The notes under the pieces: model-generated
What the model was told of the DNA's origin: nothing
Databases searched by the model: none
The model's input: the letters and a program-made list of their open reading frames with translations, nothing else
Assembly (NCBI GenBank): GCA_030648835.1
Contig: JAUSGT010000001.1
Coordinates: forward strand, 69,010-133,009
Reading direction: 5' to 3'
Source of the DNA: Candidatus Moraniibacteriota bacterium
Lineage (GTDB): Bacteria > Patescibacteriota > Minisyncoccia > Moranbacterales > UBA1568
Length of the DNA: 64,000 nucleotides
In this document: in pieces, positions 2,418 through 57,778 of the stretch
Layout of the letters: each line of letters starts with the position of its first letter
Position numbering within the stretch: the first letter of the stretch is position 1
Position numbers and translations under genes: made by a program

Positions 2418-5045
2418 TTGCTTATGCCAAAAAATATTGTACGGAAAAATGCCACCGACAAATTTGGTCCATCGGAGTGGATCATTGTCAAAGGCGCCCG
2501 CACTCATAATCTGAAAAATATCACCGTCGAGATGCCTCGCAATAAAATGGTGGTGTTTACGGGACTGTCCGGTTCGGGAAAATCATCATTGGCTTTTGAC
2601 ACGATTTTTGCCGAAGGACAACGGCGCTATGTCGAATCTCTTTCCGCTTACGCGCGGCAGTTTTTGAACACCATGCAGAAGCCGGATGTGGATGAAATCG
2701 TCGGTCTCTCACCGGCCATTTCCATCGATCAGAAGTCCGCCAGCCGCAACCCGCGTTCGACCGTGGCGACGGTGACGGAAATATATGATTATTTGCGTGT
2801 GTTGTACGCGCGTCTCGGCCGGCCACACTGTCTCGTCTGCAAGAGAGAAATAGAGAAGCTTTCAACGGAAGAAATGTTGGAAGTCGTTTCCGAGAAAGTA
2901 CAGCAGATTCTGGTAGAGAGTAAAAAAAGTCCCATAAAATCCCGTAAGACGGGATCACGGGGTAAACAGCGTCTTATGATTACGGCACCTCTGGTGCGTG
3001 GACGCAAAGGAGAATACTATCAGTTGCTCTATAATGCGCTCGGTCGTGGTTTCGCGGAGATCTTGCTTGATGGAGAGCGCAAGAGTCTGCGTGAACGGAT
3101 TCTGCTTTCCAAAAACAAAGCCCATGATATCGATCTCGTCGTGGATGAATTGCCACTTCTGGAATTTGAGAAGTTTCCGGAGACATCCGAGGAGCGTCTT
3201 TCGGAGGCGGTACAGCGCGCGCTCGAAGAAAGCGACGGGCTGGTGAACATCCATATCGGATCGGAAAATTTTGTTCTCTCATCGAAGTTCGCTTGTCCGT
3301 ATGACGGATTCTCATATCCGGAAGTGGAACCGCGATTATTTTCTTTCAACTCCCCCTACGGTGCGTGCGAGGCTTGCCATGGTCTGGGGACGAAACATTT
3401 TTTTGGCGACGATCCTTGTGAAGTCTGCCATGGGTCGCGTTTGCGCGAAGAAGCACTCCATATTTTTATCGGTGGGAAAAATATCGTGGAAGTGACGGCG
3501 CTTATGATCGGGGACGCGAAGAAGTTTTTCGATGGTTTGAAATTGACTACGCGTGAGAAACAGATTGCCGCGGTGGTATTTCGGGAAATCGGCGCGCGGT
3601 TGCAATTTCTTCTCAATGTCGGTTTGAATTATCTTTCTTTGGATCGACGTTCCAACACGCTTTCCGGTGGTGAGGCTCAACGTATCCGACTGGCGTCGCA
3701 ATTGGGTTCGCAATTGGTCGGGGCACTCTATGTGCTTGATGAGCCGACGATTGGCTTGCATCGACGTGACAATGATCGTCTCATTGAAACGTTGAAAGCG
3801 CTACGCGATTTGGGGAATACGATTATCATCGTCGAGCATGATGAGGATACGATTTTCGCTTCCGACTATATCGTCGATATCGGTCCGGGAGCGGGGGTGC
3901 ACGGCGGAGAAATCGTGGCATCCGGTTATCTGGACGACCTGCTTCTTGCCGATGCTTCAGAAACCCAGTCGCTCACTCTGCGCTATTTGCGTGGTGAAGA
4001 AAAAATCGCCATCCCCGAAAAAAGGCGGAGCAAAGAAAAGGGTCAGCTCAAAATTCGTGGCGGTGAACTTTTCAATATCAAGAATATGAATGTGGAGATT
4101 CCATTGGGGCGTTTGAGCGTCGTCACGGGAGTTTCCGGTTCCGGGAAATCCACATTTCTCTACGAGATCGTTCACAAGAATCTTCAGGCGCGTTTTGATC
4201 GGCGTTACAAGTTGAATGAGGTGTTCCATTGCCAATCGTTTAGCGGAAGCGAATATTTGTCTCGGGTGGTGCTTATCGATCAGAGTCCGATCGGGCGTAC
4301 CCCGCGTTCCAACCCGGCGACGTATACCGGAGCCTGGACGCATGTGCGCGATCTTTTCGCCGCGGCAGAAGAGGCGCGCGTGCGTGGATGGAAGGCCGGA
4401 CGTTTTTCCTTCAATCGCCCCGGCGGACGCTGTGAAACCTGCGAGGGCAACGGGTTTATCGCGGTGGAGATGCATTTTTTGCCGACGGTCTACGTGCCGT
4501 GCGATGTCTGTGACGGCAAGCGTTTCACCAAAGAAACACTTGAGGTGAAATACAAACACAAAAATATCTATCAGATACTCCAGATGACGATCGAAGAAGC
4601 TTTTTCATTCTTCACGGATATTCCGGCGATTGCCGATCGTCTGAAAACACTGAATGAAGTCGGCCTGGGGTACTTGAAACTGGGCCAATCGGCCACGACT
4701 CTTTCCGGTGGTGAGGCTCAGCGAGTGAAGATTTCCTCGGAACTCTATCGGCCACACGTGGGACGTACGATCTATCTTCTCGACGAGCCGACGATCGGAC
4801 TGCATTATGAAGATGTGAGGAAACTTTTGGAAATTCTCGAAACACTCGTGGTCAAAGGCAATACAGTCTTGGTCATCGAACACAATATGGATTTTATCAA
4901 ATCGGCCGATTATGTCATCGATATCGGGCCGGAAGGCGGGGCCGGAGGCGGAAAAATCGTGGCGGTCGGTACGCCCGAAGAAGTGGCACAGGTGTCGCAT
5001 TCTCACACAGGTCAATATTTGAAGAGAATCTTGAAGAAAGGTTAA
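2418..5045 (+). CDS. uvrA2: UvrA paralog (class-II-like, lacks UvrB-binding domain)
   Basis: Two ABC ATPase modules and Zn-finger Cys pairs, with the UvrA N-terminus [11 protein letters not shown]...[14 protein letters not shown]. Only about 9 aa lie between ACEACHGLG and [11 protein letters not shown], where the canonical UvrA at 12922 carries a ~115-aa UvrB-binding domain. Begins with TTG at 2418; the first ATG is at 2424. Confidence 0.85.
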
Positions 5046-10590: not shown

Positions 10591-10644
10591 AGGATTGATA
10601 TAGAGGATTATTTGTGTCTCAAGTATAGCATTTTTCAAAGTTGA

Positions 10645-10698
10645 GACAAAAAAAGAGGGGATACCACGCGCGTGTTGCTGTTTGCGTGTGGTATCCCC
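10645..10698 (-). terminator. Rho-independent terminator for the minus-strand gene 10767..11093
   Basis: Hairpin GGGGATACCACGCG...CGTGTGGTATCCCC; on the minus strand it is followed by a U-run (the A-run on +). Confidence 0.5.
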
Positions 10699-10766
10699 CA
10701 AAGGCTGGCTCCGCCTAACTGCCCCAGCAGGGAGGTGACTGGAATAGGGGAGCCAACAGAGAGAGG

Positions 10767-11093
10767 TTAGAACAGACGAAGCTGTTGTCCGGGCGTTGAA
10801 GTGACACCTTTCTTTGTTCGCCGACACTCTTGCTTGGCTTTTTTTGTCAGGTATTTTGCACGGCGATTGATACGAAATATAACATGTGCTTTTACCCACC
10901 TTAAAAGGTCATTGTAATAGGTGTTTTCGGGTGTTTTGTATTCAGGTTGCTTATTTTTGTGGATACCACGGGTACCCGCTTCTTTGGCAAATGCAGATAC
11001 AAACACTGTTTCGTTGAATTCTGATGGGGAGCCGATGGCATTAAATATGGATGCTCCCATTTCTGCAATCCTCGGATCTTTTCTTGAACTCAT
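10767..11093 (-). CDS. Hypothetical basic small protein (108 aa)
   Basis: Strong SD (GGAGGAGCC before ATG on the minus strand) and a lysine/arginine-rich C-terminus. No family recognised. Confidence 0.55.
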   Translation of the reverse strand: MSSRKDPRIAEMGASIFNAIGSPSEFNETVFVSAFAKEAGTRGIHKNKQPEYKTPENTYYNDLLRWVKAHVIFRINRRAKYLTKKAKQECRRTKKGVTSTPGQQLRLF

Positions 11094-11185
11094 GGCTCCT
11101 CCCTGGAAGTTGTCAAAATAACTACATTTCGTATATTATACACCTTTTTTGCATTTTTGTAAAGGGTCGTGTATGATAGGAAACT

Positions 11186-12604
11186 ATGCCAAAGTTATGG
11201 GAGAAAATTCAAACGTTTGAGGCGTTTCGGAAAAAAAATAGCCTACCGGAAGTCCCGGGAGTGTATTTCTTCTTGGACGAGAAGAAAAAACTGCTCTATA
11301 TCGGCAAGGCGACGTCACTGCGTGATCGGGTAAAGAGCTATTTTTCGTCAGATATCGGCAGAACACGGGGACTCAAGATCGAGCGCATGCTTGAAAAAGT
11401 GGGTTTTGTGGCGCACCGGAAAACGGACTCGGTATTGGAGGCGCTCATTCTGGAAGCCAGTCTTATCAAGGTTCACCAACCTTCATATAATACCGACGCG
11501 AAGGATGATAAGAGTTACAATCACGTCGTCATTACCAAGGAGTTATTTCCCCGAGTACTTATTGTGCGCGGCCGCGACCTTGGGAGGCAAGAACCAATAA
11601 CCAATAACCAAAGACCAAAGACTGACAATCAACAGCAGAAAATGCGATATAAATATGTATTCGGACCGTTTCCGGCTGGGGGAGCGCTGCGTGAAGCGAT
11701 GAAGATCGTTCGCAAGTTGTTTCCTTTCCGAGACAGATGTATTCCGTTTGAAGAAAAAAGTATTAGTCATCTTGAACGTAGTCGAAGCCTGCCTGCCGGC
11801 GGGCAGGGATCTCGAGGGAGGAGAAGGAAGAACAGCAGCGAGATTCTTCGCGTTGCTCAGAATGACAAACCTCCCGCGTGTTTCAACAGACAAATCGGTT
11901 TGTGTCCCGGCGTGTGTACGGGAGAAATAACGGCGAGGGAGTATGCGCGCACCATCAACCATATCCGTTTGTTTTTCGAAGGGCACAAGGGAATGCTCAT
12001 AAAAAAATTGGAACGCGAGATGAAAACGGCGGCAAAAAATCTGGAATTCGAGTCAGCTGGGGGGATCAAAAAAACGCTTTTCGGATTGCGACATATTCAG
12101 GATATGGCGCTTATCAAGAATGACCAACAGCCAATAACCAATGACCAACAAGAAAAGATGCGGATTGAGGCGTATGATGTGGCTCATTTGGGCGGTAGTG
12201 CTAGCGTGGGAGTGATGGTCGTTTTGCAAAATGGCAGGTCAGCGAAAGAATTCTACAGAAAGTTCACATTACGTGGTGGGCACGAAGGCAACGACTTGAC
12301 GGCTTTGGAAGAAATCTTGAAGCGGCGCTTGAAACATCTTGAGTGGCCTCTGCCGGAAATTATCGTGGTGGACGGGGCACTCCTCCAACTTGGCGTGGCG
12401 GAGCAAGTGTCGCTCTCTTTGGGAATTACTATTCCTATTGTCGGGGTGGTGAAGAATACCAAACATCAGCCGGAACGTTTGATTGGTCCGGAAACATTGA
12501 CCAGGCGTTTCAAAAAAGAAATTCTTCTGGCCAATAGCGAAGCCCACCGCTTTGCTATTACATTCCACCGTGTGCGTCGGGGAAAGGAGTTTTTGAACAA
12601 GTAG
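11186..12604 (+). CDS. uvrC: UvrC-like excinuclease subunit (no C-terminal HhH domain; contains inserted repeats)
   Basis: GIY-YIG domain (PGVYFFLDEKKKLLYIGKATSLRDRVKSYF), Cys-rich region, UVR-like helix and RNase-H-like endonuclease domain (IEAYDVAHLGGSASVGVMVV...EAHRFAITFHR). The protein ends about 100 aa short of a canonical UvrC. It carries a ~35-aa in-frame insertion around 11780-11830 and two QPITN(D/N)Q short repeats. Confidence 0.8.
   Translation: MPKLWEKIQTFEAFRKKNSLPEVPGVYFFLDEKKKLLYIGKATSLRDRVKSYFSSDIGRTRGLKIERMLEKVGFVAHRKTDSVLEALILEASLIKVHQPSYNTDAKDDKSYNHVVITKELFPRVLIVRGRDLGRQEPITNNQRPKTDNQQQKMRYKYVFGPFPAGGALREAMKIVRKLFPFRDRCIPFEEKSISHLERSRSLPAGGQGSRGRRRKNSSEILRVAQNDKPPACFNRQIGLCPGVCTGEITAREYARTINHIRLFFEGHKGMLIKKLEREMKTAAKNLEFESAGGIKKTLFGLRHIQDMALIKNDQQPITNDQQEKMRIEAYDVAHLGGSASVGVMVVLQNGRSAKEFYRKFTLRGGHEGNDLTALEEILKRRLKHLEWPLPEIIVVDGALLQLGVAEQVSLSLGITIPIVGVVKNTKHQPERLIGPETLTRRFKKEILLANSEAHRFAITFHRVRRGKEFLNK
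11786..11806. repeat. Family-B GC-rich palindrome copy inside uvrC (in-frame)
   Basis: CCTGCCTGCCGGCGGGCAGGG, followed by AAGAACAGCAGCGAG. It matches the intergenic copies at 12877 and 57630. Confidence 0.5.
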
Positions 12605-12622
12605 AGTTTCAAAACAGCTTTC

Positions 12623-12770
12623 TGCCACAAGAATCTTTCCGGGAGGCTTGAAGTTTTTTTGAGCATGGTTCCGGCGTTTCGACGGATCAAAAAAAGTTCA
12701 CGCAAAGAGTTTGTCCGCTGGGGCAAACGAATGGCTACCCGGAGAGGTTGCTTGTGGTCGGAAAGCTCAA
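12623..12770 (-). repeat. Family-A structured element, copy 4 (inverted orientation)
   Basis: The reverse complement aligns along the full length with copies 1-3 (CCACAAG...CCGGGAG...TTTTTTTGAGCATGGTTCC-hairpin-GGATCAAAAAAAGTTC...CTTGTGG). Confidence 0.65.
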
Positions 12771-12876: not shown

Positions 12877-12898
12877 ACCTGCCTGCCGGCAGGCAGGT
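12877..12898. promoter_or_regulatory. Perfect 22-bp palindrome ACCTGCCTGCCGGCAGGCAGGT upstream of uvrA (Family B; operator candidate)
   Basis: Perfect dyad symmetry, 24 nt upstream of the uvrA start. Confidence 0.45.
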
Positions 12899-12921: not shown

Positions 12922-15720
12922 ATGCCAGGAAAAAAATCGGTGATTGAAATTCGCGGCGCACGAGTCAATAATTTGAAGAACGTGGATGTTGATATTCCGC
13001 GTAACGCGCTCGTTGTCGTGACGGGACTTTCCGGTTCGGGGAAATCTTCTTTGGCTTTTGATACTCTTTTTGCGGAAGCGAATCGGCGTTATGTCGAATC
13101 GCTTTCTTCGTATGCGCGCAATTTTCTTGATGGCTTCGACAAACCCGATGTGGATGCTATTCACAACCTCAGTCCGGCAATTTCCATCGATCAGAAGAGC
13201 GTGTCACGCAGTCCACGCTCCACGGTCGGTACCATGACGGAAGTCTACGATTACTTGCGTATTTTGTTTGCCAAACTCGGGGTACCGCATTGTCCCACAT
13301 GCGGGAAGCGGCTCATGCGAAAGAGTGTACGGGAAATTTTGGAAGAGATTCTCAATTTGCCCGATCAGACACCTTTGGTCTTCATTTCCTACAGCAAGGC
13401 GCTGAAGGAAAAAACCGAAGCGTCCGCGCTCGCGCAGATCGGTGTGTGGGGGTATGTGCGGGTATTGTTTCATGGAGAAGTCTTACCGATCGGAGACGCG
13501 CAGGCTGTGGCTTCGGCCACGGAGATTTCCGATATAGCGGTCGTCGTGGATCGGCTGACAATCAATCTGACTCGGCCCGACAAAGAGCGTATCCTCGATT
13601 CTCTCCAGACGGCCTTTCGCGTGGGACAGGGAACGCTCACGCTACGTATCAATGGGACCGGCGAGGAGCGTTTGTACAATGAGGAATACCGCTGTGAAGA
13701 ATGCGGCATCGGTCTGCCTCAGTGTACGCCGAGTCATTTTTCTTTCAATAGTCCCGAGGGGGCGTGCGAGAAGTGTGCGGGGCTCGGCGTGACACTCGAA
13801 TTCGATCCGGAGCTGGTTATTCCCAACAAAAATCTTTCCTTGGCCGAAGGAGCAATTCGTCCGTGGAGCAAGATGAACGGGGATCGGCATACCGGACAAG
13901 GACCGATGCATTGGTTGCGCGATTTGAGTCGGCAGATGAAGTTTTCATTCGATGTGCCGGTGAAGAAACTTTCCGCCAAATATTTTTCTTTCATACTGTA
14001 TGGCGATGGGAGGAAAGAGGAAGACGCTTTCCCCGGGGTGATCGCGCTCCTCGAGAAAAAATACCGTGAGACAAAATCGGATCATCTGCGGGCCGATATT
14101 GAGGCGTATATGTTGACCAAACTCTGTCCCGTCTGTCTCGGGAAACGTCTGAAAAAGAGTTCGCTTGCCGTGAAGATAGAAGGGTTGTCCATTAATGACT
14201 TGGTATCCGAGAGTGTGGAGAGATTTTTGGTACTCGAAAAATCATTGCGTGAGAAGCTTTTGAAAACCGGGGAAAAAGAGTTGATCAATCCTCTGTTTCG
14301 CGAAATGGAAACCCGTCTCATGGCGGTGGAAAAAGTGGGCCTCGGTTATCTGGAATTGTCCCGTGGCGCCGATACGCTTTCCGGTGGAGAGGCCCAGCGC
14401 GTCCGTTTGTCGGTGCAGATGAAATCGGGGCTTTCTGGCATCATCTATGTCCTCGATGAGCCATCGGTAGGCTTGCACAGCCGCGATACGGAAAGGCTCA
14501 TTCGCGCGTTGGAAGACCTGCGTACCGCCAACAATTCGCTCGTGATCGTCGAACACGACGTGGCGATTATGCGCAAGGCGGACTATATCATCGACTTGGG
14601 TCCGGGCGCCGGGAGCGAAGGTGGGGAAATTATTTTTTCCGGTACGCCGGAGAAACTGATGCATTCGAAACTTCTCACCGGTCAGTATCTTTCCGGTAAG
14701 CGCAAGATATCCGACAAAAAGAAAGCGCGGCCAATAAGCGCGGAAGCCATTACCATTTTTGGCGCGACGGAACACAATTTGAAAAATGTGGATGTCAAAA
14801 TCCCTCTCGGAATGCTCGTCGCCGTTTCCGGAGTTTCCGGGTCGGGTAAATCAAGTCTGGTGCATGATATTTTGTCGCGGGCGCTCTCCAAATATTTCTA
14901 TCATGCCAAGGCCGAGCCGGGCGCCCACAAGAAGATAGAGGGACTTTCCCACATCGACAAGGTGATTGCCGTGACACAGGATCCTATCGGTCGTACACCG
15001 CGTTCCAACGCGGCGACGTATACCGGTGTGTTCAGTCTGATCCGTGATTTGTTTGCGGCGACGGTAGAGGCAGGACGGGAAAAATATTCCGCCAGTCATT
15101 TCAGCTTCAATATGCGGGGTGGGCGCTGTGAATCCTGTCAGGGTGGCGGATTGAAAAAAATCGAGATGTATCTTTTGCCCGATGTCTACGTGCCGTGCGA
15201 AATCTGTCAGGGGACACGCTACAATGCGAAGACGTTATCTATCGAATACCGCGGAACGAATATCGCGTCAGTGCTCAAGATGACCGTCACGGAAGCGCGG
15301 CGTTTTTTCTTGGACCAGCCGATGATCGAAGAAAAGTTGCGCGTGTTGGAAGAAGTTGGTTTGGGTTACCTGGTTTTGGGACAGAGCGCCACCAATCTTT
15401 CCGGCGGAGAAGCCCAGCGGATCAAATTGGCGACGGAGTTGGCGCGCAAATCAACCGGTAAGACGCTCTATATTCTCGATGAACCGACCATTGGGCTCCA
15501 TTTCGAGGATGTGCGGCGTCTTTTGGAAGTGCTCGAAGTGTTGGTGGACAAGGGCAACAGCGTCCTGGTTGTGGAGCACAACCTCGATGTTATTGCCTCG
15601 GCTGATTGGGTGTTGGAGTTAGGCCCGGATGGGGGAGCCAAGGGCGGAGAGCTTATTTTCTCCGGACCACCGGAAAAATTGAAGAGCTGCAAGCGCTCTT
15701 TCACTGCAAAGTATCTGTAG
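12922..15720 (+). CDS. uvrA: Excinuclease ABC subunit A (canonical, with UvrB-binding domain)
   Basis: [40 protein letters not shown] ~115-aa insertion between AGLG and CPVCLGKR is the UvrB-binding domain. Two ABC signature motifs (LSGGEAQR) are present. Confidence 0.95.
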
Positions 15721-15728
15721 TTTTTTTG

Positions 15729-15876
15729 GGTCTTTTCTCGCAAGCAACCTTTCCTGAGGTCGTTCGTTCACCCAGCGGTGAACTTCTCTTATGAGATTTT
15801 TTTGATCCGTCAGAACGACGGCACCGTGCTCAAAAAAATCTCAACTCCTCCGGCAAGATTCTTGCGAGAAAAGACC
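15729..15876 (+). repeat. Family-A structured element, copy 2
   Basis: Perfect 16-bp terminal inverted repeat GGTCTTTTCTCGCAAG / CTTGCGAGAAAAGACC. Conserved core with a covarying central hairpin (CCGTC/GACGG). Confidence 0.7.
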
Positions 15877-15921
15877 AACGTGGATTTTATTAGAAATTAG
15901 GTATTAGAAATTAGATACTTT

Positions 15922-24604: not shown

Positions 24605-24753
24605 TCTCCTCATCACAAGTAACCTCCCCGGGCAGACACTCATTTCCCCCAGCGGGGAAACTCGTTGCGTGAACTTTTTTTGATCCGCCTGAGACGGCGG
24701 AACCGTGCTCAAAAAAACTTCAAGCCTCCCGGGAAGATTCTTGTGAGAGGAGG
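24605..24753 (+). repeat. Family-A structured element, copy 3
   Basis: TIRs CCTCATCACAAG/CTTGTGAGAGGAGG, conserved core and a covarying hairpin (CCGCC/GGCGG). Confidence 0.7.
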
Positions 24754-24832
24754 GTATTTTGAGGCTCTCTCCATTGAATTTTTTGCGGGTTGAGATTGAC
24801 CCTATAGTTTTTTTTGGCTATACTGTCTGACT

Positions 24833-32110: not shown

Positions 32111-32256
32111 AGGATTTTGTATTAATGGATTGTCTTGTATTATAGCATGGACAAAAATCCTATAAGTTGTGGGTATTTGGCGTGGGCGTGGTAGGATGGG
32201 GGTATCAGAGGGGGAGATGGCGAGATATGGGTATTAAATAATTAATATTTAAAGTT

Positions 32257-32655
32257 ATGAAAGGATTCCACGCAAACATAGAAAAAGACACGCTCGAGAA
32301 CACCGACTTCCGTCGCGTGCTCTACACAGGCAAACACAGCCAGCTGGTACTGATGAGCTTGAAACCCAAAGAGGAGATCGGTCTCGAAACACATACCGAA
32401 AACGACCAGTTTTTTCGGATAGAAAAAGGCCACGGTATGTGCATCCTCGATGGCCATGAATACGCACTCGCCGACGGTTCAGCCATTGTGGTCCCGTCCG
32501 GCGCCAAGCACAATATCATCAATACGTCGGAGACAGAAGACCTCAAGCTCTATACCGTCTACTCTCCGGCACACCATAAGGACGGCATTGTCAGGGCTAC
32601 CAAAGAAGAAGCCGAAGCCAACGAAGCGGAGTTCGACGGCACAACTACCGAATAA
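32257..32655 (+). CDS. Cupin-domain protein, copy 1
   Basis: Small cupin barrel (GLETHTENDQFFRIEKGHGMCILDGHEYAL...VVPSGAKHNIIN). About 95% identical to the 37045 copy. Confidence 0.75.
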   Translation: MKGFHANIEKDTLENTDFRRVLYTGKHSQLVLMSLKPKEEIGLETHTENDQFFRIEKGHGMCILDGHEYALADGSAIVVPSGAKHNIINTSETEDLKLYTVYSPAHHKDGIVRATKEEAEANEAEFDGTTTE

Positions 32656-32677
32656 ATATTGGCCATTGCCAAAAATG

Positions 32678-32717
32678 AAAGCCAGGGGCAGGCATAATAA
32701 ATATACTGAGCTGTGAA
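32678..32717 (+). repeat. Family-R 40-bp repeat, copy 1
   Basis: AAAGCCAGGGGCAGGCATAATAAATATACTGAGCTGTGAA. Five copies, all coding-capable for (K)AK(G/S)R(H/Q)(D/N/S)KYTE(Q/L)*. Confidence 0.6.
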
Positions 32718-32739
32718 TCGATAGAATAGTATTGATGAT

Positions 32740-32767
32740 ATTCTCACATTCTGCAGAATGTGAGAAT
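32740..32767. promoter_or_regulatory. 28-bp perfect palindrome P1 (ATTCTCACATTCTGCAGAATGTGAGAAT), candidate ArsR operator
   Basis: Perfect dyad 11 nt upstream of the arsR-family gene start. Two more copies at 33051 and 36936. Confidence 0.55.
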
Positions 32768-32778
32768 GTTGAAAAGGT

Positions 32779-33057
32779 ATGAAGAAGGTATTGAAGACAG
32801 CCAAACAATTGGAACGGCATTTCAAGGGAGCGGCCAATCATCGCCGCATCGAGATTTTGCTTTTGCTCGCTGATGATGAGGGTATGAGTTTGGACGGGAT
32901 TGCCGAGCGGTTAGATTGCAACATCAAAACCATTTCAGAACACACACGCAAGCTGGTGCAAGCCGGCTTGGTAAACAAGGCATACAAGGGGAGATCGGTC
33001 GAACACACGCTTTCTCCGTACGGAAAATCATTCTGCCGTTTTATAAGAACATTCTGA
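32779..33057 (+). CDS. ArsR/SmtB-family winged-helix transcriptional regulator
   Basis: HRRIEILLLLADDEGMSLDGIAERLDCNIKTISEHTRKLVQAGLV is a typical HTH_5 fold. Confidence 0.8.
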   Translation: MKKVLKTAKQLERHFKGAANHRRIEILLLLADDEGMSLDGIAERLDCNIKTISEHTRKLVQAGLVNKAYKGRSVEHTLSPYGKSFCRFIRTF

Positions 33058-33078
33058 CATTCTGCAGAATGTCAGAAT
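33051..33078. promoter_or_regulatory. 28-bp perfect palindrome P2 (ATTCTGACATTCTGCAGAATGTCAGAAT)
   Basis: Overlaps the arsR stop codon and lies ~70 nt upstream of the kinase-like gene. Confidence 0.55.
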
Positions 33079-33147
33079 GTCTGGGGTGGGTGGTTTTCGG
33101 GTGGGGGAGGTGGTAGGATGGACGTAACGAGTTAGGTAACAGGAATT

Positions 33148-34023
33148 ATGTCGGAATTCTCTCCAATTGAAGCGCTCAAAGTGCCCGTGAAGAAAGTGGC
33201 CAGGGCGGCGGAAAACGCGTTTTTTAATTATGAAAGGAATCAAAGTACTGAGGCGTCATGGGACACTCTTTTTGACAACAAAGCGGGAAAATTCCTGCGC
33301 ACCCAAGCGCTCTTCACGGTGATTCGCGATATGGTGCCGGACAGCCTCTTCGAAAAATTGACCGGGAGATTTTACAAATATCAGAAAGGTGGTCTGCCGA
33401 TTGATCCGGAGAAATATACTTTTGACGAAAAAAGGGTTGGTGGCGGTGGCGAATGCAATGTTTACAGGCTCAACTCGCTTGATTCGGATCTTCCGTCACT
33501 CGTGATCAAAATTGATCAATTCATTTCCCGCAGTACCGATAAAATGCTCACTCGGGCCAAGGCGGTAAAAAGTGAGTATGAAGAGAAAAAAGAATTATAT
33601 CGGGATCTGCCGGAATTGATTCCGGACGAGTTCCACTTTATCGGAAAAAGTCCGCGTGGGGGAAAGCCGGCCCTTCTGACGATCCAGGAGTTTCTCGGTA
33701 ATGAGAATGAAATGAGAGATCTCTTCCGAGGTATCAGTAAAGAAGAATTATTGGAAATCTTGCGGCAGAACTCTCGATTGCAGGCAGACTTTCGGAAATT
33801 TGCAGGAATTACGCTTGAGCGTGCTCGTGAAAAGGATGAGATGATCGATACTTTGGGAGACAAAAACCTGGTGCTTATACAGAGAGAAGGGAATACCTCT
33901 CTCATCTTTCTTGACCCGCATGTTACCAAGCATCCCGTTGCCGATGTGAAAGAGAGCGCGAGGATCCGGGCGGATCTCGATTATCTGGAGGGTATCGTCG
34001 CGACGCTCGATAATGGCGAGTAA
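33148..34023 (+). CDS. Protein-kinase-like fold protein (atypical kinase), tentative
   Basis: Gly-rich loop VGGGGECNVY, a VIKI (VAIK-like) lysine, and catalytic-loop-like GDKNLVL...IFLD. Not a P-loop kinase. Confidence 0.4.
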   Translation: MSEFSPIEALKVPVKKVARAAENAFFNYERNQSTEASWDTLFDNKAGKFLRTQALFTVIRDMVPDSLFEKLTGRFYKYQKGGLPIDPEKYTFDEKRVGGGGECNVYRLNSLDSDLPSLVIKIDQFISRSTDKMLTRAKAVKSEYEEKKELYRDLPELIPDEFHFIGKSPRGGKPALLTIQEFLGNENEMRDLFRGISKEELLEILRQNSRLQADFRKFAGITLERAREKDEMIDTLGDKNLVLIQREGNTSLIFLDPHVTKHPVADVKESARIRADLDYLEGIVATLDNGE

Positions 34024-34051
34024 TCGTCCGGGATGATAGGATGGACGTACT

Positions 34052-34669
34052 ATGAATTACAAACGCTACGATATTGTCGTCATCCCGCCAAAAGATATTA
34101 CCGAACAAGCCATCGAGATGAGCCGGGCATTGGAGCGGTTTGATTCTTTTTTCGTTCTCGATGATGAGACATTCCATCCGCACATTTCGCTCTACCATGC
34201 GCCCTTCGACGAGTCAGCGCTCGAAACCGTGATTGCTGTAGTGGGAGACATCGCGGCCGCTACGCAGTCATTTTTGTTACAGCAGGAAACGTATTATCCG
34301 GATCAAGGAGTATGGGTCGGAGTGCGCTATGTCGTCGACAAAGCCATTCTCGATCTGCATACCGCTGTCATCGAAGCGACGAAAGGCTATCGTGTGATAG
34401 AGGATGACGCCCGCTACAAGGCGCGCTGGGCGGATCTCGGCCCGCAGCAACGAAAAAACATAGAGGATTGCGGCTGGCCGGATGCCTTTACCGCTTATTT
34501 TCCGCATATCAGCTTTACGAAACTGAAGCAACCGAAAGCGGATGTCCTCGCCCATCTCCCGCAACACGACTTCTCATTTCTTGCCGACCATATCGGTTTG
34601 TATGAACTGGGGGCAGACGGGACATGCGCCAAGCTCGTGGCGGACTTCCGGCTTGAAAAGAGGGACTGA
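34052..34669 (+). CDS. 2H phosphoesterase superfamily protein (LigT/CPDase-like)
   Basis: Two H-x-S motifs (HPHISLY and FPHISFTK) spaced as in the 2H fold. Confidence 0.65.
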   Translation: MNYKRYDIVVIPPKDITEQAIEMSRALERFDSFFVLDDETFHPHISLYHAPFDESALETVIAVVGDIAAATQSFLLQQETYYPDQGVWVGVRYVVDKAILDLHTAVIEATKGYRVIEDDARYKARWADLGPQQRKNIEDCGWPDAFTAYFPHISFTKLKQPKADVLAHLPQHDFSFLADHIGLYELGADGTCAKLVADFRLEKRD

Positions 34670-34784
34670 AGGGGAGTTATAGTTCCTATATATAGTTATT
34701 GGCAATAAATGTGTAGGTTACTGTATATTTAGGTAGATTTACATACTACTTGTGTAGATTTAGATCGTATGATAGTATCATTAT

Positions 34785-35504
34785 ATGGAAGAAGAATTAC
34801 TTACAATCGGTCAAGCTGCTGAATATCTTGGGGTCGCTCTGAACACGTTACGTCGTTGGGACGAAAGTGGTAAATTGGTTGCGATCAAAAAGGATGGTGG
34901 CACTCATCGATATTATCGTGAGAAAGACTTGGAAATTTTTGCCAGTGATTTGATGATGTTTGCTTCTGGGTGGATCGAGAGCGGAGTTGAGTTTCCAGGG
35001 ACATTCTATTGTTCGACCAGCTCGATTTTCAATGCCAGACTGACGAAAATGGAGTACGTGCTCATGCAGAAGCCGGGATTTGAAAAATTATATTCCTTGA
35101 TTGTTCTCGTTACCGGAGAGATTGGTGACAATTCGTTTGCTCACAACTTGGGGAAGTGGCCGGATACAGCAGGAATTTTTTTCGGTTACGACCTAGAGAA
35201 GCGGATCATTGTCCTGGCTGATCGAGGACTGGGTGTATTGGAGACGTTGTGCCAGGTGCGTCCAGACCTTCCGAGTCATGTGGCGGCGGTGGAAGTTGCC
35301 TTTACCGAATTTATTTCTGGCCGGGCACCGGAAAAGCGAGGTAACGGACTGAAACTCGTTCGCGAGGTCGTCACGGATCAGCCAATTGATTTATTTTATA
35401 CCAGCGGGGATGCCGAGGTGCGCATGCAAGGCGCGGATAAAGTGTTTCGTGTTACGCGCGGGCAACATATCTTGAGGGGATGTTTAGCAAAGATAGAATT
35501 TTAA
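34785..35504 (+). CDS. MerR/excisionase-type HTH fused to GHKL (histidine-kinase-like) ATPase domain
   Basis: N-terminal LTIGQAAEYLGVALNTLRRWDESGKL. ATPase N box (GEIGDNSFAHNLG), G1 (DRGLGV) and G2 (RGNGLKLV). Confidence 0.6.
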   Translation: MEEELLTIGQAAEYLGVALNTLRRWDESGKLVAIKKDGGTHRYYREKDLEIFASDLMMFASGWIESGVEFPGTFYCSTSSIFNARLTKMEYVLMQKPGFEKLYSLIVLVTGEIGDNSFAHNLGKWPDTAGIFFGYDLEKRIIVLADRGLGVLETLCQVRPDLPSHVAAVEVAFTEFISGRAPEKRGNGLKLVREVVTDQPIDLFYTSGDAEVRMQGADKVFRVTRGQHILRGCLAKIEF

Positions 35505-35812
35505 TCCATTGTAAAAAGCATATGAAATTACAGCTAGAAAAATTTGGCACGACGCTCATATCGCGGGAATTGGGGAGCGAGGCCTTCAAGGCATTCCAGT
35601 CGACTCTGCGCGAGCTTTCTCCTGATGAAGAGCTAGAAATAGATTTTTCTGGTGTACTGACATTGTCACCGTCATGGGCTGATGAATTTTTAAGTCCATT
35701 GCTGAATCAATTGGGTGACAGATTAATTCTTTTACCGAGTGACAATCTTTCAGTACACGCAACGCTCCGAATTCTTCAAGAGGCTAATAAGCAGAGTTTT
35801 ACGATGAAGTAA
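35480..35812 (+). CDS. STAS-like DUF4325-family protein (putative partner-switching antagonist)
   Basis: LEIDFSGVLTLSPSWADEFLSPLL resembles DUF4325. 25-nt overlap with the GHKL gene. Confidence 0.5.
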   Translation: MFSKDRILIHCKKHMKLQLEKFGTTLISRELGSEAFKAFQSTLRELSPDEELEIDFSGVLTLSPSWADEFLSPLLNQLGDRLILLPSDNLSVHATLRILQEANKQSFTMK

Positions 35813-35882
35813 TGTACCCCGCCCGCCGTGCTTGCTCTGTGAAATTGCAAAGCACCGACGGAGTCGGATTCCGCTTCGGAAA

Positions 35883-35922
35883 AAAGCCAAGAGCAGACAG
35901 AGTAAATATACTGAGCAGTGAA
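35883..35922 (+). repeat. Family-R repeat, copy 2 (variant AGCAGACAGAG)
   Basis: AAAGCCAAGAGCAGACAGAGTAAATATACTGAGCAGTGAA, followed by the conserved leader GTATTAAGGACTGGAAGAAATAAGAAT ATG. Confidence 0.6.
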
Positions 35923-35949
35923 GTATTAAGGACTGGAAGAAATAAGAAT

Positions 35950-36591
35950 ATGGCGTATATCTTTCTTGATGAAAGTGGTGATTTGGGGTTTGACTTCAAA
36001 AAGAAGGGCACTTCCAAGTTTTTTATTGTTACCATTCTCTTTACCGAAGACTCCAGAGGAGGGATTGAAAAGGTGGTGAAGAAAACACATTCAGAACTTG
36101 CGAAGAAATTCAAAAGACGTGTTGGTACATTGCATGCGGTTCAAGAAAAGCCCATTACCCGTACCCGTTTTCTGAAACGGATTGCCGAGAAGGAATGTGG
36201 TGTTATGGCTATTTATCTCAACAAGAAGAAGGTACATACGCATCTCCAGGACGAAAAACAAGTGCTTTACAATTACGTGACCAATATTCTCTTAGATAGA
36301 ATCTATACGAAAAAAATTCTTTCCCCGGATCTTGTCATAGAGCTCATCGCATCTCGGCGCGAAACCAACAAGTTTCTTAATGAAAACTTCAAAGATTACT
36401 TGAGCCGGCAAATAAAGAATAACCACAAAGGTCTTATGAAAATTTCCATTAAAACACCGGCTGAAGAGAAGTGTCTTCAGGCAGTAGACTTTCTGAGTTG
36501 GGCAATTTTTCGTAAATATGAGCGCGGAGATGAAAGTTACTACAATCTTTTCAAGAGAAAAATCATCGAGGAGAATCCTTTATTTCCGTAA
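35950..36591 (+). CDS. DUF3800-family protein
   Basis: N-terminal MAYIFLDESGD and C-terminal LQAVDFLSWAIFRKYE are DUF3800 hallmarks. Internal start of the 35812 ORF. Confidence 0.65.
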   Translation: MAYIFLDESGDLGFDFKKKGTSKFFIVTILFTEDSRGGIEKVVKKTHSELAKKFKRRVGTLHAVQEKPITRTRFLKRIAEKECGVMAIYLNKKKVHTHLQDEKQVLYNYVTNILLDRIYTKKILSPDLVIELIASRRETNKFLNENFKDYLSRQIKNNHKGLMKISIKTPAEEKCLQAVDFLSWAIFRKYERGDESYYNLFKRKIIEENPLFP

Positions 36592-36873
36592 AAACAAAAC
36601 CTCGTACGCTGTCTAGAGCAACCATCCGGAAGCCCACGTACGAGGATTTACTTGTATGCCTGTATTGTAGTAAATAAAACAAGACTTGTCAAGGGAAGGG
36701 GGCTGACGTATTTTTGCGTAAAAAATGGAATATTTTGGCTTGTTTTCTTTACGGAAGGGGGCATTTGGAGTAGATTGGTGATAGGTTTATCCCGCTTGCC
36801 GCGTTGCTGTACGAGATAGTCATGAATTTTCGGATTATACGGTAAAAGTATTGAGTTTATTCATTTTCCGTAA

Positions 36874-36913
36874 AAAGCCAAGAGCAGACAGAGTAAATAT
36901 ACTGAGCAGTGAA
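36874..36913 (+). repeat. Family-R repeat, copy 3
   Basis: Identical to the copy-2 variant. Immediately preceded by a stop codon in the peptide frame, so not part of an intact gene. Confidence 0.6.
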
Positions 36914-36935
36914 TCCATAGAATAGTATTGATGAT

Positions 36936-36963
36936 ATTCTCACATTCTGCAGAATGTCAGAAT
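36936..36963. promoter_or_regulatory. 28-bp palindrome P3 (hybrid of P1/P2, one mismatch) upstream of cupin copy 2
   Basis: ATTCTCACATTCTGCAGAATGTCAGAAT, about 80 nt upstream of the 37045 start. Confidence 0.5.
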
Positions 36964-37044
36964 GATTGGGTGGGTGGGGGGAGGTGGTATGATGGGTGTA
37001 CCAGAGGGGAAGATTCGTGTATTAAATAATAATATTTCAATACT

Positions 37045-37443
37045 ATGAAAGGATTCAACACACACATAGAAAAAGATACGCTCGAGAACACCGACTTCCG
37101 TCGCGTGCTTTACACAGGCTCGCACAGCCAGCTGGTATTGATGAGTTTGAAACCCAAAGAGGAGATCGGCCTCGAAACACATACCGGAAACGACCAGTTT
37201 TTTCGGATAGAAAAAGGCCACGGCATGTGCATCATCGACGGCCATGAGTATGCACTCGCCGATGGTTCGGCTATCGTGGTCCCGTCCGGCGCCAAACACA
37301 ATATCATCAACACGTCGGAGACAGAAGACCTCAAGCTCTATACCGTCTACTCTCCGGCGCACCATAAGGACGGCATTGTCAGGGCTACCAAAGAAGAAGC
37401 CGAAGCCAACGAAGCGGAGTTCGACGGCACAACAACCGAATAA
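37045..37443 (+). CDS. Cupin-domain protein, copy 2 (duplicate)
   Basis: Near-identical to 32257..32655, including ~80 bp of upstream leader and ~60 bp downstream. Confidence 0.75.
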   Translation: MKGFNTHIEKDTLENTDFRRVLYTGSHSQLVLMSLKPKEEIGLETHTGNDQFFRIEKGHGMCIIDGHEYALADGSAIVVPSGAKHNIINTSETEDLKLYTVYSPAHHKDGIVRATKEEAEANEAEFDGTTTE

Positions 37444-37465
37444 ATATTGGCCACTGCCAAAAATG

Positions 37466-37505
37466 AAAGCCAAGGGCAGGCATGATAAATATACTGAGCT
37501 GTGAA
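37466..37505 (+). repeat. Family-R repeat, copy 4
   Basis: AAAGCCAAGGGCAGGCATGATAAATATACTGAGCTGTGAA, then the leader GTATTAAGGATTGGAAGAAATAAAATT ATG. Confidence 0.6.
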
Positions 37506-37532
37506 GTATTAAGGATTGGAAGAAATAAAATT

Positions 37533-38018
37533 ATGAAAAAAACTAGTAGCAAGGGGATTGTTGGCGTATCTGGTGAATATTTTGTGGCTGCGGAACTTTC
37601 TCAGCGAGGCATTGTGGCTACCTTGACTCTCAAAAACACTCCCTATATCGACATACTTGCCACAAACTTAGAAAAGGGCACAACCGCCAACATTCAGGTG
37701 AAAACTATGTCTGTCGATAACAATGCTGGTTGGAGATTGGGGGAAAAAGATGGATTGCCTTCAAATATAAAGAATCACTTTTATGTGCTCGTTGATTTAC
37801 ATGGACCTGGTAAATTGCCCGAATATATAATCATACCCAAGAAAGTATTAGCAGATTTTATAAATAAGGGTCATGCTGAATGGCTTTTAGGAAAAAAGAA
37901 GGATGGCTCCTCTAGAAAAAATACTGGCGTTAGAGTTTTTGATCCAAACAGAAAAGTGTCTACTCGAAAATTTGCCGAAAAATACGTAAATAATTGGAGC
38001 ATATTAGATTTGTGGTAG
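37533..38018 (+). CDS. PD-(D/E)xK nuclease-fold protein (putative)
   Basis: GVSGEYFVAAEL...IDILATN...ANIQVKT matches an E...D...(Q/E)xK arrangement. Internal start of the 37482 ORF. Confidence 0.45.
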   Translation: MKKTSSKGIVGVSGEYFVAAELSQRGIVATLTLKNTPYIDILATNLEKGTTANIQVKTMSVDNNAGWRLGEKDGLPSNIKNHFYVLVDLHGPGKLPEYIIIPKKVLADFINKGHAEWLLGKKKDGSSRKNTGVRVFDPNRKVSTRKFAEKYVNNWSILDLW

Positions 38019-38026
38019 TAAAAGTT

Positions 38027-38374
38027 ATGGATAAGATAAAAGATTTGACTAAAAGAATACTAGCTTTCCGCAATGCTCGGGACTGGAAGCAATTTCACAA
38101 TCCGAAAGACGTGGCGCTCTCGCTGGTTTTGGAAGCGGCGGAGGTTATGGAACATTTCCAGTGGAAGAACCCGGCGGAAATTGAAGAGTATGTAAAAAAG
38201 CATAAGAAAGATATAGGCGAAGAATTGGCTGATGTTTTCAATTGGGTGTTGCTGCTGAGTCATGATTTGGGGATAGATATTGTAGAAGCGGCCAAAAAGA
38301 AAGTTAAAAAGAACGAAAAAAAGTACCCCGTAGAAAAAGCCAAAGGCAGGCATGATAAATATACTGAGCAGTGA
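38027..38374 (+). CDS. MazG-like nucleoside triphosphate pyrophosphohydrolase (small all-alpha NTP-PPase)
   Basis: ILAFRNARDWKQFHNPKDVALSLVLEAAEVMEHFQWK...ELADVFNWVLLLSHDLGIDI. The C-terminal tail is encoded by Family-R copy 5. Confidence 0.75.
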   Translation: MDKIKDLTKRILAFRNARDWKQFHNPKDVALSLVLEAAEVMEHFQWKNPAEIEEYVKKHKKDIGEELADVFNWVLLLSHDLGIDIVEAAKKKVKKNEKKYPVEKAKGRHDKYTEQ

Positions 38375-38375
38375 A
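38336..38375 (+). repeat. Family-R repeat, copy 5 (forms C-terminus of MazG-like gene)
   Basis: AAAGCCAAAGGCAGGCATGATAAATATACTGAGCAGTGAA. Confidence 0.6.
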
Positions 38376-38420
38376 TTGATTACCTCGCTGAGCAGGATTT
38401 CGCTAGGAATGTTAGGATAT

Positions 38421-49570: not shown

Positions 49571-49692
49571 CATTTAATACCTAATATCTAATACCTAATA
49601 AAAATCAAACATCAAAATTCAAAATGAGAAGGGCGATTCAAAAATCAAACATCAAAGTTTAGCAAGAATAAATTTTTAAGTTTGAGGGTTGG

Positions 49693-57629: not shown

Positions 57630-57649
57630 ATGCCAAGTCCCTGCCTGTC
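57630..57649. repeat. Family-B GC-rich palindrome copy (CCTGCCTGTCGGCAGACAGG) inside a ~140-bp AT-rich inverted-repeat element
   Basis: An imperfect dyad related to 12877..12898, flanked by GTCAAAATCCAAAT / ATTTGGATTTTGA inverted repeats (57609-57750). Confidence 0.45.
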
Positions 57650-57778
57650 GGCAGACAGGAAATTCGAAGAACAAATGTTCAAAAAGTTGGTTTTGGGATT
57701 CTGAAATTTAGTCATTGATTTGATATTTGGATTTTGAGTTTTGACATTTTCTTTATATTTACAGTTTAATTTTGTCTT

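Follow-up and report, generated by a model that had tools for sequence, protein, structure and literature searches.

We analyzed a 64-kb stretch of DNA (the window; contig JAUSGT010000001.1, positions 69,010 to 133,009) from a Candidatus Moraniibacteriota bacterium, and found in it a gene for the nucleotide excision repair nuclease UvrC that is short of two canonical domains and carries DNA repeats within its coding region. Our best explanation, to which we assign a probability of roughly three in four, is that this is the orthologous, minimal uvrC of the Moranbacteria, the loops of which have been invaded by DNA repeats, with a short palindrome among these repeats behaving as a discrete unit. 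The gene represents the normal uvrC of its clade, its loops are hypervariable and two kinds of DNA-level repeat reside in them, namely heptanucleotide tandem arrays and a 20-nt palindrome. Domains were sought with the Pfam and NCBIfam profiles, structural matches in the PDB, tandem repeats with TRF and tRNAs with ARAGORN; L-numbers below denote genome or viral loci fetched for comparison and P-numbers homologous proteins. The features of the gene and its immediate surroundings are as follows:

11186..12604, + strand: uvrC in its minimal form, 472 aa, with GIY-YIG, Cys-rich motif, UVR and RNase H-like nuclease (open reading frame (ORF), Pfam, homologs, BLASTP)
11258..11491, + strand: GIY-YIG 3'-incision nuclease domain, aa 25-102 (Pfam PF01541)
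11576..11650, + strand: variable loop 1, aa 131-155, LGRQEPITNNQRPKTDNQQQKMRYK, which follows RGRD and holds a heptamer array (TRF, alignment, AlphaFold)
11738..11917, + strand: Cys-rich, iron-sulphur (FeS) motif C185-X46-C232-X3-Q236-X3-C240-X3-C244 (alignment)
11741..11878, + strand: variable loop 2, aa 186-231, the 46-aa spacer that separates Cys1 from Cys2 in the FeS motif (alignment, AlphaFold)
11996..12070, + strand: UVR (UvrB-binding) motif, aa 271-295 (Pfam PF02151)
12119..12160, + strand: variable loop 3, aa 312-325, NDQQPITNDQQEKM, which precedes RIEAYD (alignment, TRF)
12149..12559, + strand: C-terminal RNase H-like 5'-incision domain, aa 322-458 (Pfam PF08459, UvrC_RNaseH_dom)
12606..12765, unstranded: long-hairpin repeat of ~150 nt just after the uvrC stop, not part of uvrC (repeat search; absent from L002)
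12922..15720, + strand: uvrA, 932 aa, the conserved partner 3' of uvrC (ORF, synteny)

The predicted protein, which ends in ...RRGKEFLNK*, contains a GIY-YIG domain (Pfam E = 8e-9; PDB match 1yd6, E = 7e-18), a UVR motif that exceeds the gathering score (E = 2e-6) and the RNase H-like nuclease domain (E = 3e-30; PDB matches 3c65 and 2nrt), and its best matches among solved structures are all fragments of UvrC (3c65, 1yd6, 2nrt and 8b0q). Across 62 homologs the catalytic residues of the GIY-YIG domain (Y27, Y38, R48, E85 and N102) and the D-D-H triad of the RNase H-like domain (D331, D396 and H454) are invariant. The residues of the Cys-rich motif (C185, C232, Q236, C240 and C244) are likewise all present and invariant, with the first spacer, at 46 aa, falling outside the range of the published UvrC FeS consensus, CX6-14CX3(H/Q)X3CX3C (PMC10085695). 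The juxtaposition of uvrC and uvrA is conserved, and in the syntenic relative L002, where the gene order is uvrB, ydjC, a second uvrA-like gene, a small ORF, uvrC and uvrA, uvrB is also close by. Going by these conserved residues and neighbors, the gene is an orthologous and probably functional uvrC, and its product is presumably active.

Like the canonical UvrC proteins (E. coli b1913 and those of the T. maritima and D. radiodurans structures), the window protein thus combines GIY-YIG, the residues of the FeS motif, UVR, the RNase H-like domain with its D-D-H triad and an adjacent uvrA. Unlike them, it has neither the central RNase H-like domain PF22920 nor the C-terminal pair of helix-hairpin-helix (HhH) motifs, (HhH)2, its Cys1-Cys2 spacer measures 46 instead of 6-14 aa, and its score falls below the cutoff of TIGR00194, the NCBIfam equivalog for UvrC. 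By sequence comparison it departs from UvrC proper on three counts, namely PF22920, (HhH)2 and the equivalog cutoff. An identical protein, P0001, encoded on a 204-kb contig of a Candidatus Moranbacteria metagenome-assembled genome (MAG), bears only the label 'GIY-YIG nuclease family protein', probably because of this sub-threshold score.

The extent of the deficit was determined by comparison with E. coli UvrC, in which the same Pfam scan places PF22920 at 251-368, PF08459 at 385-542 and HhH at 557-608. BLASTP aligns residues 11-322 of the window protein with E. coli 5-250 and residues 323-467 with E. coli 391-551, which leaves E. coli 251-390 (the central domain, ~140 aa) and 552-610 ((HhH)2, ~59 aa) without a counterpart. 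Consistent with this, the Pfam scan of the window protein found no HhH family and no match to PF22920 at E <= 0.1. This architecture is not confined to the window: both the window protein and the distant short members P0094, P0190, P0220 and P0231 comprise solely GIY-YIG, UVR and PF08459. All 120 of the closest homologs are 413-495 aa long and free of HhH Pfam domains, and 20 homologs that were aligned each end in ...FHRxRRGKEFL. A HMMER/phmmer scan of 1.84 billion 50%-identity cluster representatives, of which the best 150 matches, down to 37% identity, were taken, recovered proteins that are nearly all ~400-480 aa in length, with the complete ones aligning through the end of the query. As read from these alignments, absence of (HhH)2 is peculiar neither to this gene nor to this genome and belongs to the ancestral domain layout of a large clade. 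The short form is not universal in Patescibacteria, since the palindrome-bearing locus L033 encodes a long UvrC.

An alternative that would account for the shortness is that uvrC is damaged and non-functional, having been truncated by a frameshift, by erroneous sequencing or by the repeat after its stop. The ORF is indeed shorter than canonical UvrC, the ~150-nt repeat starts at the stop codon and the equivalog score is just under the cutoff. Nevertheless, the short form and its end recur in the 120 close homologs and in the 150 representatives, the catalytic residues are invariant, and the stop codon occupies the same position in L001 and L002; as L002 stops at this codon without having the downstream repeat, the repeat did not truncate the gene. 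In addition, no Pfam domain, HhH or other, is detectable in the ORFs downstream of uvrC, and the sequence permits no +1/-1 correction near 12600 that would yield an HhH-bearing extension. We hence regard damage as a very improbable explanation of this orthologous, minimal uvrC.

An earlier note on this DNA, made from the sequence alone, had recognized GIY-YIG, the Cys region, UVR and the RNase H-like domain, in agreement with Pfam and the alignment, and had described a UvrC homolog without (HhH)2, which the lack of any HhH family in Pfam bears out. It placed the stop ~100 aa before the canonical end; only ~59 aa are absent from the C-terminus, the remainder of the deficit being the internal PF22920 domain, which it overlooked. 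Its framing of the missing (HhH)2 as a truncation is not supported, given the common end of the 120 homologs and 150 representatives, and the frameshift restoring a longer C-terminus that it had considered is not seen, every ortholog having the same stop, and the DNA beyond it in the window consisting of the repeat element and then uvrA. It had also suggested looking for a separate HhH protein elsewhere in the genome: within the 64-kb window, a search with the E. coli domains for stand-alone HhH or RNase H1 proteins gave nothing below E = 0.2, and the best match overlaps a RarA/MgsA gene on the opposite strand.

A UvrC that naturally lacks (HhH)2 is plausible, because D. radiodurans UvrC without this module still cuts on both sides of the lesion, its 5' incision being only partly impaired; (HhH)2 normally stabilizes DNA binding for that incision (PMC10085695). 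The protein would also have to be active without the central, or platform, domain. A search of the open-access literature brought up nothing relevant on UvrC in Patescibacteria. The clade would perform nucleotide excision repair with a UvrC short of two domains, and such a natural minimal form could be used to test the true need for the platform domain and (HhH)2, both deemed structurally or kinetically important in model organisms (PMC10085695).

Against a basal family length of ~413-415 aa, the window protein reaches 472 aa by means of its three loops, the lengths of which range across the 120 homologs from 11 to 43 aa (loop 1), 7 to 57 aa (loop 2) and 9 to 25 aa (loop 3). The family modes of loop 2 are 7 and 16 aa, with 7 aa in 30 of 119 homologs, and many phmmer matches to distant relatives are split at about aa 190/230. 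An AlphaFold2 model built on the 62 homologs (mean predicted local distance difference test score, pLDDT, 75.5) has pLDDT < 50 at aa 136-151, 196-225 (in detail, 196-199 and 201-225) and 307-322, that is, within the three loops. Elsewhere the nuclease domains mostly score 76-97 and the Cys-rich segment outside the insert ~50-72. About 90 nt of loop 2 are lineage-specific, of which the palindrome supplies 20 nt. The RNA fold of the loop-2 insert yields the palindrome hairpin as its one robust element (z = -1.27), with no larger structure. No ortholog has the segment inserted in loop 2; the loops of other homologs are occupied by heptamer arrays and, in loops 1 and 2, by unrelated palindrome-derived peptides. 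A case of the latter is seen in loop 1 of the uvrC of P0004 (L161 1918-1983), where an in-frame double palindrome GTCATTCCCGCGAAAGCGGGAATCCAG...CTGGATCCCGGGTCAAGCCCGGGATGAC reads VIPAKAGIQ...WIPGQARDD. Its first hairpin has the form ATTCCC-N8-GGGAAT, that of the Neisseria dRS3 repeat; the only literature match to this form was a Neisseria paper.

TRF identified period-7 arrays in the window uvrC at 11588-11611 (3.4 copies, 94% matches), 11607-11622 and 12119-12148. The loop 1 array (11588-11622) consists of CAATAAC x3.4 followed by ACCAAAG x2.3 and encodes EPITNNQ, while that of loop 3 (12119-12148) consists of AATAACC x4.3 and encodes QPITNDQ; the motif CCAATAACCAATRACCAA is confined to these two sites of the window, with 5 overlapping matches versus 0.11 expected. 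In loop 1 the window exceeds both L001 and L002 by exactly 21 nt, or 3 units. Since three heptamers make 21 nt, an array can lengthen by 7 aa with the frame intact, reading all three frames of the unit. Pure (CCAATAA)3 would hold an in-frame TAA, and the arrays in uvrC use variant units that avoid it. L002 has heptamer arrays in all three loops, close relatives have related arrays at the loop 3 site, and L160 has ACAGTCA x13.6 in loop 2 and ACGACTC x3.7 in loop 3. Intergenic arrays also occur in the window, with TATTAGA at 15888-15917 after uvrA and TAATACC / AAAAATC / TCAAAAA at 49575-49656, between two ORFs whose translations, judged by eye, are MraZ-like and RsmH-like; arrays of period 7 are consequently a general feature of this genome and not of uvrC alone.

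The occupation of loop 2 raises the alternative that its insert was co-opted, with the Arg/Lys-rich GSRGRRRKNSS near the FeS motif providing non-specific DNA binding that partly replaces (HhH)2. A basic loop 2 is present in many homologs (e.g. KQKEKAKP, NNKRSKTKDKKP and SKKSKAKNKEPR), and stabilization of DNA binding for 5' incision is the normal role of the missing module. Yet almost every lineage has a loop 2 of its own sequence, length and origin, only 7 aa stand there in the 30 homologs mentioned above, the segment is predicted to be disordered, and LPAGGQ, the peptide encoded by the palindrome, is not basic. Such co-option appears unlikely to us, and within the minimal uvrC the inserts are presumably neutral passengers.

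The palindrome occurs at three sites of the window:

11788..11807, unstranded: copy CCTGCCTGCCGGCGGGCAGG, differing by one A-to-G change from the perfect form, in frame as LPAGGQ (sequence search)
12878..12897, unstranded: perfect 20-nt palindrome CCTGCCTGCCGGCAGGCAGG in the uvrC-uvrA spacer (sequence search; empty site in L002)
57640..57659, unstranded: decayed third copy with 2 mismatches, intergenic, just upstream of a glyA-like ORF at 57779-59020 (sequence search)

No copies are expected in a shuffled window. The copy within uvrC is read AGC CTG CCT GCC GGC GGG CAG GGA, i.e. S-LPAGGQ-G. Alignment of the three copies, and blastn against the window and all loci, delimit the repeat unit to the 20-nt core alone, which has a perfect 10-bp stem and is free of stop codons in all six frames. 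The hairpin is not followed by a T-run at the window copies, and the window as a whole gave no Rfam match at gathering thresholds.

Comparison of orthologous sites establishes, at the level of sequence, that the 20-mer was gained as a block in three independent contexts. First, the uvrC-uvrA spacer of L002 reads ...TTCGGACATA|TCTTAAGAA where the window has ...TTCGGACATA[20-mer]TCTCAAGAA, which constitutes an exact empty site without target duplication. Second, GatB of L107 (CAYUUU010000001.1), which is Shapirobacteria-like, contains ...ETD[DLPAGRQV]VYT with the 20-mer, whereas the orthologs in L162 and L163 (95% and 89% identical) have ...ETDDGQTVYT; at the DNA level GATGA(CGGTCAAAC)TGTC corresponds to GATGA[20-mer]TGGTT, and with a net change of +12 nt the frame was kept by local loss or rewriting. 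Third, in a viral tRNA-Met gene (L149 2240-2331; IMGVR_UViG_3300033148_008720) the 20-mer lies in the variable region, and ARAGORN finds a tRNA of 92 nt with it and of 72 nt once it is excised. The insert in this tRNA mimics a long extra arm, and a similar sequence occurs in L126. The idea of frequent D-loop insertions into tRNA genes was rejected, as excision of the palindrome restored no tRNA in L018, L040, L088, L102 and L109; tRNA-restoring behavior is seen in L149 and, weakly, in L033 alone. Copies are also nested within one another in L021, L024 and L045, the host copy being split after nt 11 in L021 and L045.

These results bear on the remainder of the earlier note. Its spacing of ~47 aa, against a usual ~12, between RDRC and CFNRQIGLC holds up well, the measured value being 46 against family modes of 7 and 16 and a published range of 6-14. 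The palindrome it placed at 11786-11806 is present, with the exact position being 11788-11807; it is in frame, although it makes up only 20 of the ~90 extra nt of the insertion attributed to it. The likening to Rickettsia palindromic elements, as a repeated palindrome that is in frame and tolerated, is upheld by its absence from orthologs, by the pLDDT < 50 of the segment and by the clean indel elsewhere. Orthologs sharing the insert as conserved protein sequence, which the note named as evidence to the contrary, were not found. The two QPITN(D/N)Q segments are, as it had stated, encoded by tandem repeats, according to TRF, but the unit is a heptamer of period 7 and not a codon repeat.

An exact-match scan of 596 Gb, covering one genome per species, recovered at least 120 genome stretches carrying the 20-mer, where by our own arithmetic a random 20-mer would give ~0.5 matches. 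The carriers belong to about 12 phyla and include many classes of the Candidate Phyla Radiation (CPR), Omnitrophota, Bacteroidota, Planctomycetota, Bdellovibrionota, Nitrospirota, Thermodesulfobacteriota, Chloroflexota, Verrucomicrobiota, Elusimicrobiota, Ignavibacteria and proteobacterial bins; among the Bacteroidota are cultured Winogradskyella, Flagellimonas, Longitalea, Flavivirga, Aquiflexum, Agriterribacter and Aestuariivivens. The viral contigs of IMG/VR contributed 35 further stretches, with a maximum of six copies on one 29.5-kb contig. GC-rich viral contigs (L125 at 10596-11753, L145, L152 and L153) have dense palindromes, with tandem pairs one heptamer apart in GGTGAGA / CCTCTAA arrays.

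As most carriers are metagenome assemblies, and chimeric reads can create palindromes, the 20-mer might be an assembly or library artefact of MAGs. This is extremely improbable, given that cultured isolates carry it (Winogradskyella echinorum, Flagellimonas yonaguniensis, Longitalea luteola, Aquiflexum lacus and others), that many projects and assemblers are involved, judging from contig names, and that a constant sequence stands in variable contexts. Moreover, coding copies keep the frame, with a preference for that giving LPAGRQ, and decayed copies exist. Among the proteins with in-frame copies are FtsK, in its motor domain, GatB, in GatB_N, a dehydratase of the RfbB type and a PMT_2 glycosyltransferase.

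Three composition-matched palindromes used as controls, one of them with the arms swapped, gave 0 matches. When the centre was left free, as CCTGCCT-N6-AGGCAGG, 40 of 128 matches had GCCGGC, the next most frequent was a one-base variant of it (9) and the rest were scattered; this dominance points to one master sequence rather than a family of covarying hairpins. Copies are depleted from long frames (23% in frames of at least 200 aa versus 70% of random positions) and their flanks are unrelated to each other. The flank preferences are weak, with A^T in 33 of 123 copies and G^G or C^C in another count of 33 of 123, and there is no tetranucleotide tag. Flanking inverted-repeat stems of at least 6 bp accompany 6.6% of copies versus 1.1% of controls. 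The 7-mer to the left equals that to the right, with one mismatch allowed, in 13 of 161 copies versus 0.39% of controls (p = 6e-12), and this phased signal is specific to k = 7 (15 cases versus at most 2 for k = 4-6 and 8-10). An earlier, stricter heptamer test that required perfect lag-7 runs of at least 10 had detected only 2.5% of copies and was replaced by the phased 7-mer test. The Q-rich segments of uvrC are a second DNA-level invader that is statistically linked to the palindrome, and do not constitute a protein feature in their own right.

A rival possibility is that the 20-mer is immobile, being either a functional hairpin under selection, such as a protein-binding site or an element for RNA stability or termination, or a convergent product of (CCTG)n/(CAGG)n slippage, in which case the copy in uvrC would be coincidental. 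The perfect 10-bp stem, the mostly intergenic placement reflected in the depletion from long frames and the lack of a mobilizing gene nearby would all fit. Set against these are the 20/20 identity over about 12 phyla and viruses amid unrelated flanks, variants that are single-base derivatives of one master and not covarying stems, the 0 matches of the swapped-arm and composition-matched controls, the nesting of copies and their presence inside conserved protein domains and a tRNA, and the want of a T-run after the window copies. We consider immobility improbable.

Several points weigh against the reading of a minimal uvrC invaded by discrete repeats and should be set beside the evidence for it. 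The TIGR00194 score of the protein, 280.3 bits, lies just below the cutoff of 285.45. No source was identified for the remaining ~70 nt of extra loop-2 sequence, since blastn of the 141-nt insert region found no match to it in the window or the 160 fetched loci; and as identity to even the nearest ortholog is only 80%, loop 2 cannot be traced back to its ancestral form. The 20-nt unit is not a multiple of three, and additional changes are needed to hold the frame. The net +12 nt of GatB, with its local rewriting, implies that the event is not always a clean cut-and-paste. Clustering of all ORFs in 120 loci of roughly 8 kb revealed no transposase or recurrent gene near the copies, and the case for mobility is accordingly a comparative one. 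The controls for the heptamer and hairpin enrichment were random genomic positions and not intergenic positions only, so that the enrichment may be partly positional. Finally, L107 is labelled uncultured Gammaproteobacteria while its GatB is 73-95% identical to proteins of Shapirobacteria, a CPR lineage; some labels of third-party annotation (TPA) bins among the carriers are thus probably wrong, and the count of phyla needs to be taken with caution.

The palindrome may be compared with several known kinds of repeat. Rickettsia palindromic elements (RPEs) are, as Ogata et al. 2000 are summarized in Delihas 2011 (PMC3184786), ~105-146 nt in length, restricted to Rickettsia and found in frame in protein genes. 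As with RPEs, a palindromic repeat is found here both between genes and in frame in conserved genes, absent from orthologs, situated in loops and tolerated; unlike them, the unit has 20 nt, a fifth to a seventh of their length, is unrelated to them in sequence and is spread over many phyla and viral contigs, with hosts other than Rickettsia. REP/REPIN elements are short GC-rich palindromes of 20-40 nt that are mostly extragenic, in families typically confined to one or a few species. The 20-mer, likewise a short, GC-rich, repeated and mostly extragenic palindrome, differs from REP/REPIN-RAYT systems in having no GTAG/CGTC tag or conserved flank and in its identical spelling across phyla, and no RAYT-like gene was found in the roughly 8-kb fetched loci.

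In size and behavior the 20-mer also resembles the small dispersed repeats (SDRs) of heterocystous cyanobacteria, with precise indels, nesting and heptamer association as common traits. SDRs are reportedly ~20-27 nt long, fall into several hairpin-forming families and encode no enzyme, and they are said to show precise presence or absence between orthologous regions and to insert within heptameric repeats and each other. For SDR5, precise insertion at a fixed site is confirmed in a paper citing Elhai et al. 2008 (Genome Res 18:1484). The likeness is drawn from the description of SDRs; in contrast to them, the hosts here are CPR, Bacteroidota, Planctomycetota, Omnitrophota and others, with in-frame copies in housekeeping genes. 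None of the 120 genome stretches listed, among the at least 120 found, bears a cyanobacterial label. The heptanucleotide arrays have their own parallels, such as the cyanobacterial STRR, which are heptanucleotide tandem arrays. TAACTGA heptamer repeats are known with a patchy distribution from Beggiatoaceae, Cyanobacteria and Bacteroidetes (MacGregor 2015, PMC4679880). The arrays described here resemble these in their period of 7, variable units, mostly intergenic location with occasional presence in ORFs giving 7-aa repeats, and patchy distribution, but differ in being inside three loops of a conserved repair enzyme throughout a clade and in being phased with a 20-nt palindrome.

We tentatively propose, at somewhat less than even odds, that CCTGCCTGCCGGCAGGCAGG is an undescribed cross-phylum mobile unit of exactly 20 nt, which would move among CPR bacteria, Bacteroidota, Planctomycetota, Omnitrophota and their viruses and enter heptamer arrays, hairpin centres, its own copies, tRNA genes and coding loops as a block, with an LPAGRQ signature, and that the uvrC insert and the heptamers belong to one invasion system that is related to SDRs but wider. 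In the open-access literature nothing relevant came up for the 20-mer, for either of its halves or for LPAGRQ, PACRQAG and IPAKAGIQ as peptides, an absence that is no proof of novelty. Under the scenario that we favor for the gene, both the platform domain (PF22920) and the C-terminal (HhH)2 would be ancient losses of the clade, and the three surface linkers would be soft spots that repeatedly absorb heptamer arrays and short GC-rich palindromes, with selection keeping only insertions that are in frame and free of stops. The 20-mer would be comparable to a non-autonomous micro-element: it is gained as a block, mostly with no duplication of the target, at sites that are mostly intergenic, often between heptamer units, at hairpin centres or inside its own copies, and sometimes in genes or tRNAs. 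It might be mobilized in trans by an enzyme: transposition via single-stranded DNA hairpins, of the IS200/IS605 or RAYT type, would suit both the hairpin and the lack of target duplication, although no such gene was seen near the copies. Otherwise, the 20-mer could be written by templated repair or replication. As GatB shows, the event is able to rewrite several neighboring bases.

An identically spelled 20-mer in a dozen phyla and viral contigs, tolerated in FtsK, GatB, RfbB, UvrC and a tRNA, points to mobilization or templating without an element-encoded protein over very large phylogenetic distances; if truly mobile, it would be among the smallest such units known. Its link to heptamer arrays connects it with repeats whose origin is a long-standing puzzle. 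For protein annotation, segments of the LPAGRQ, VIPAKAGIQ and QxTxNxQ types in CPR proteins are footprints of DNA repeats and not protein motifs, and such footprints account for length heterogeneity and sub-threshold family scores.

A few further observations concern the surroundings of the gene. The neighborhood holds two UvrA paralogs, at 2418-5045 (875 aa) and 12922-15720 (932 aa), and the pair is kept in L002 (870 and 932 aa). A small ORF of ~100-108 aa at 10767-11093 on the - strand is divergent from uvrC, keeps its position in L001, L002, L003, L160 and L161 and matches no Pfam family; it is a candidate for a clade-specific partner or regulator of the repair cluster. The ~150-nt repeat after uvrC has further copies at 2204-2350, 15728-15866 and 24612-24762 (the last in opposite orientation) and in L001 at 2796-2841, and flanks both uvrA genes and uvrC. 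It has no Rfam match and forms one long imperfect hairpin, 9 of the 41 predicted pairs of which stay paired despite changes in both partners; a foldback miniature inverted-repeat transposable element and a structured RNA are its possible identities. Lastly, the region 32215-38405 of the window is a cluster of repeats, with a 300-nt direct repeat (32215 / 37003), 70-91-nt blocks at 32678, 35883, 36874, 37466 and 38336, and another family of palindromes, ATTCTCACATTCTGCAGAATGTGAGAAT, with copies at 32740, 33051 and 36936.

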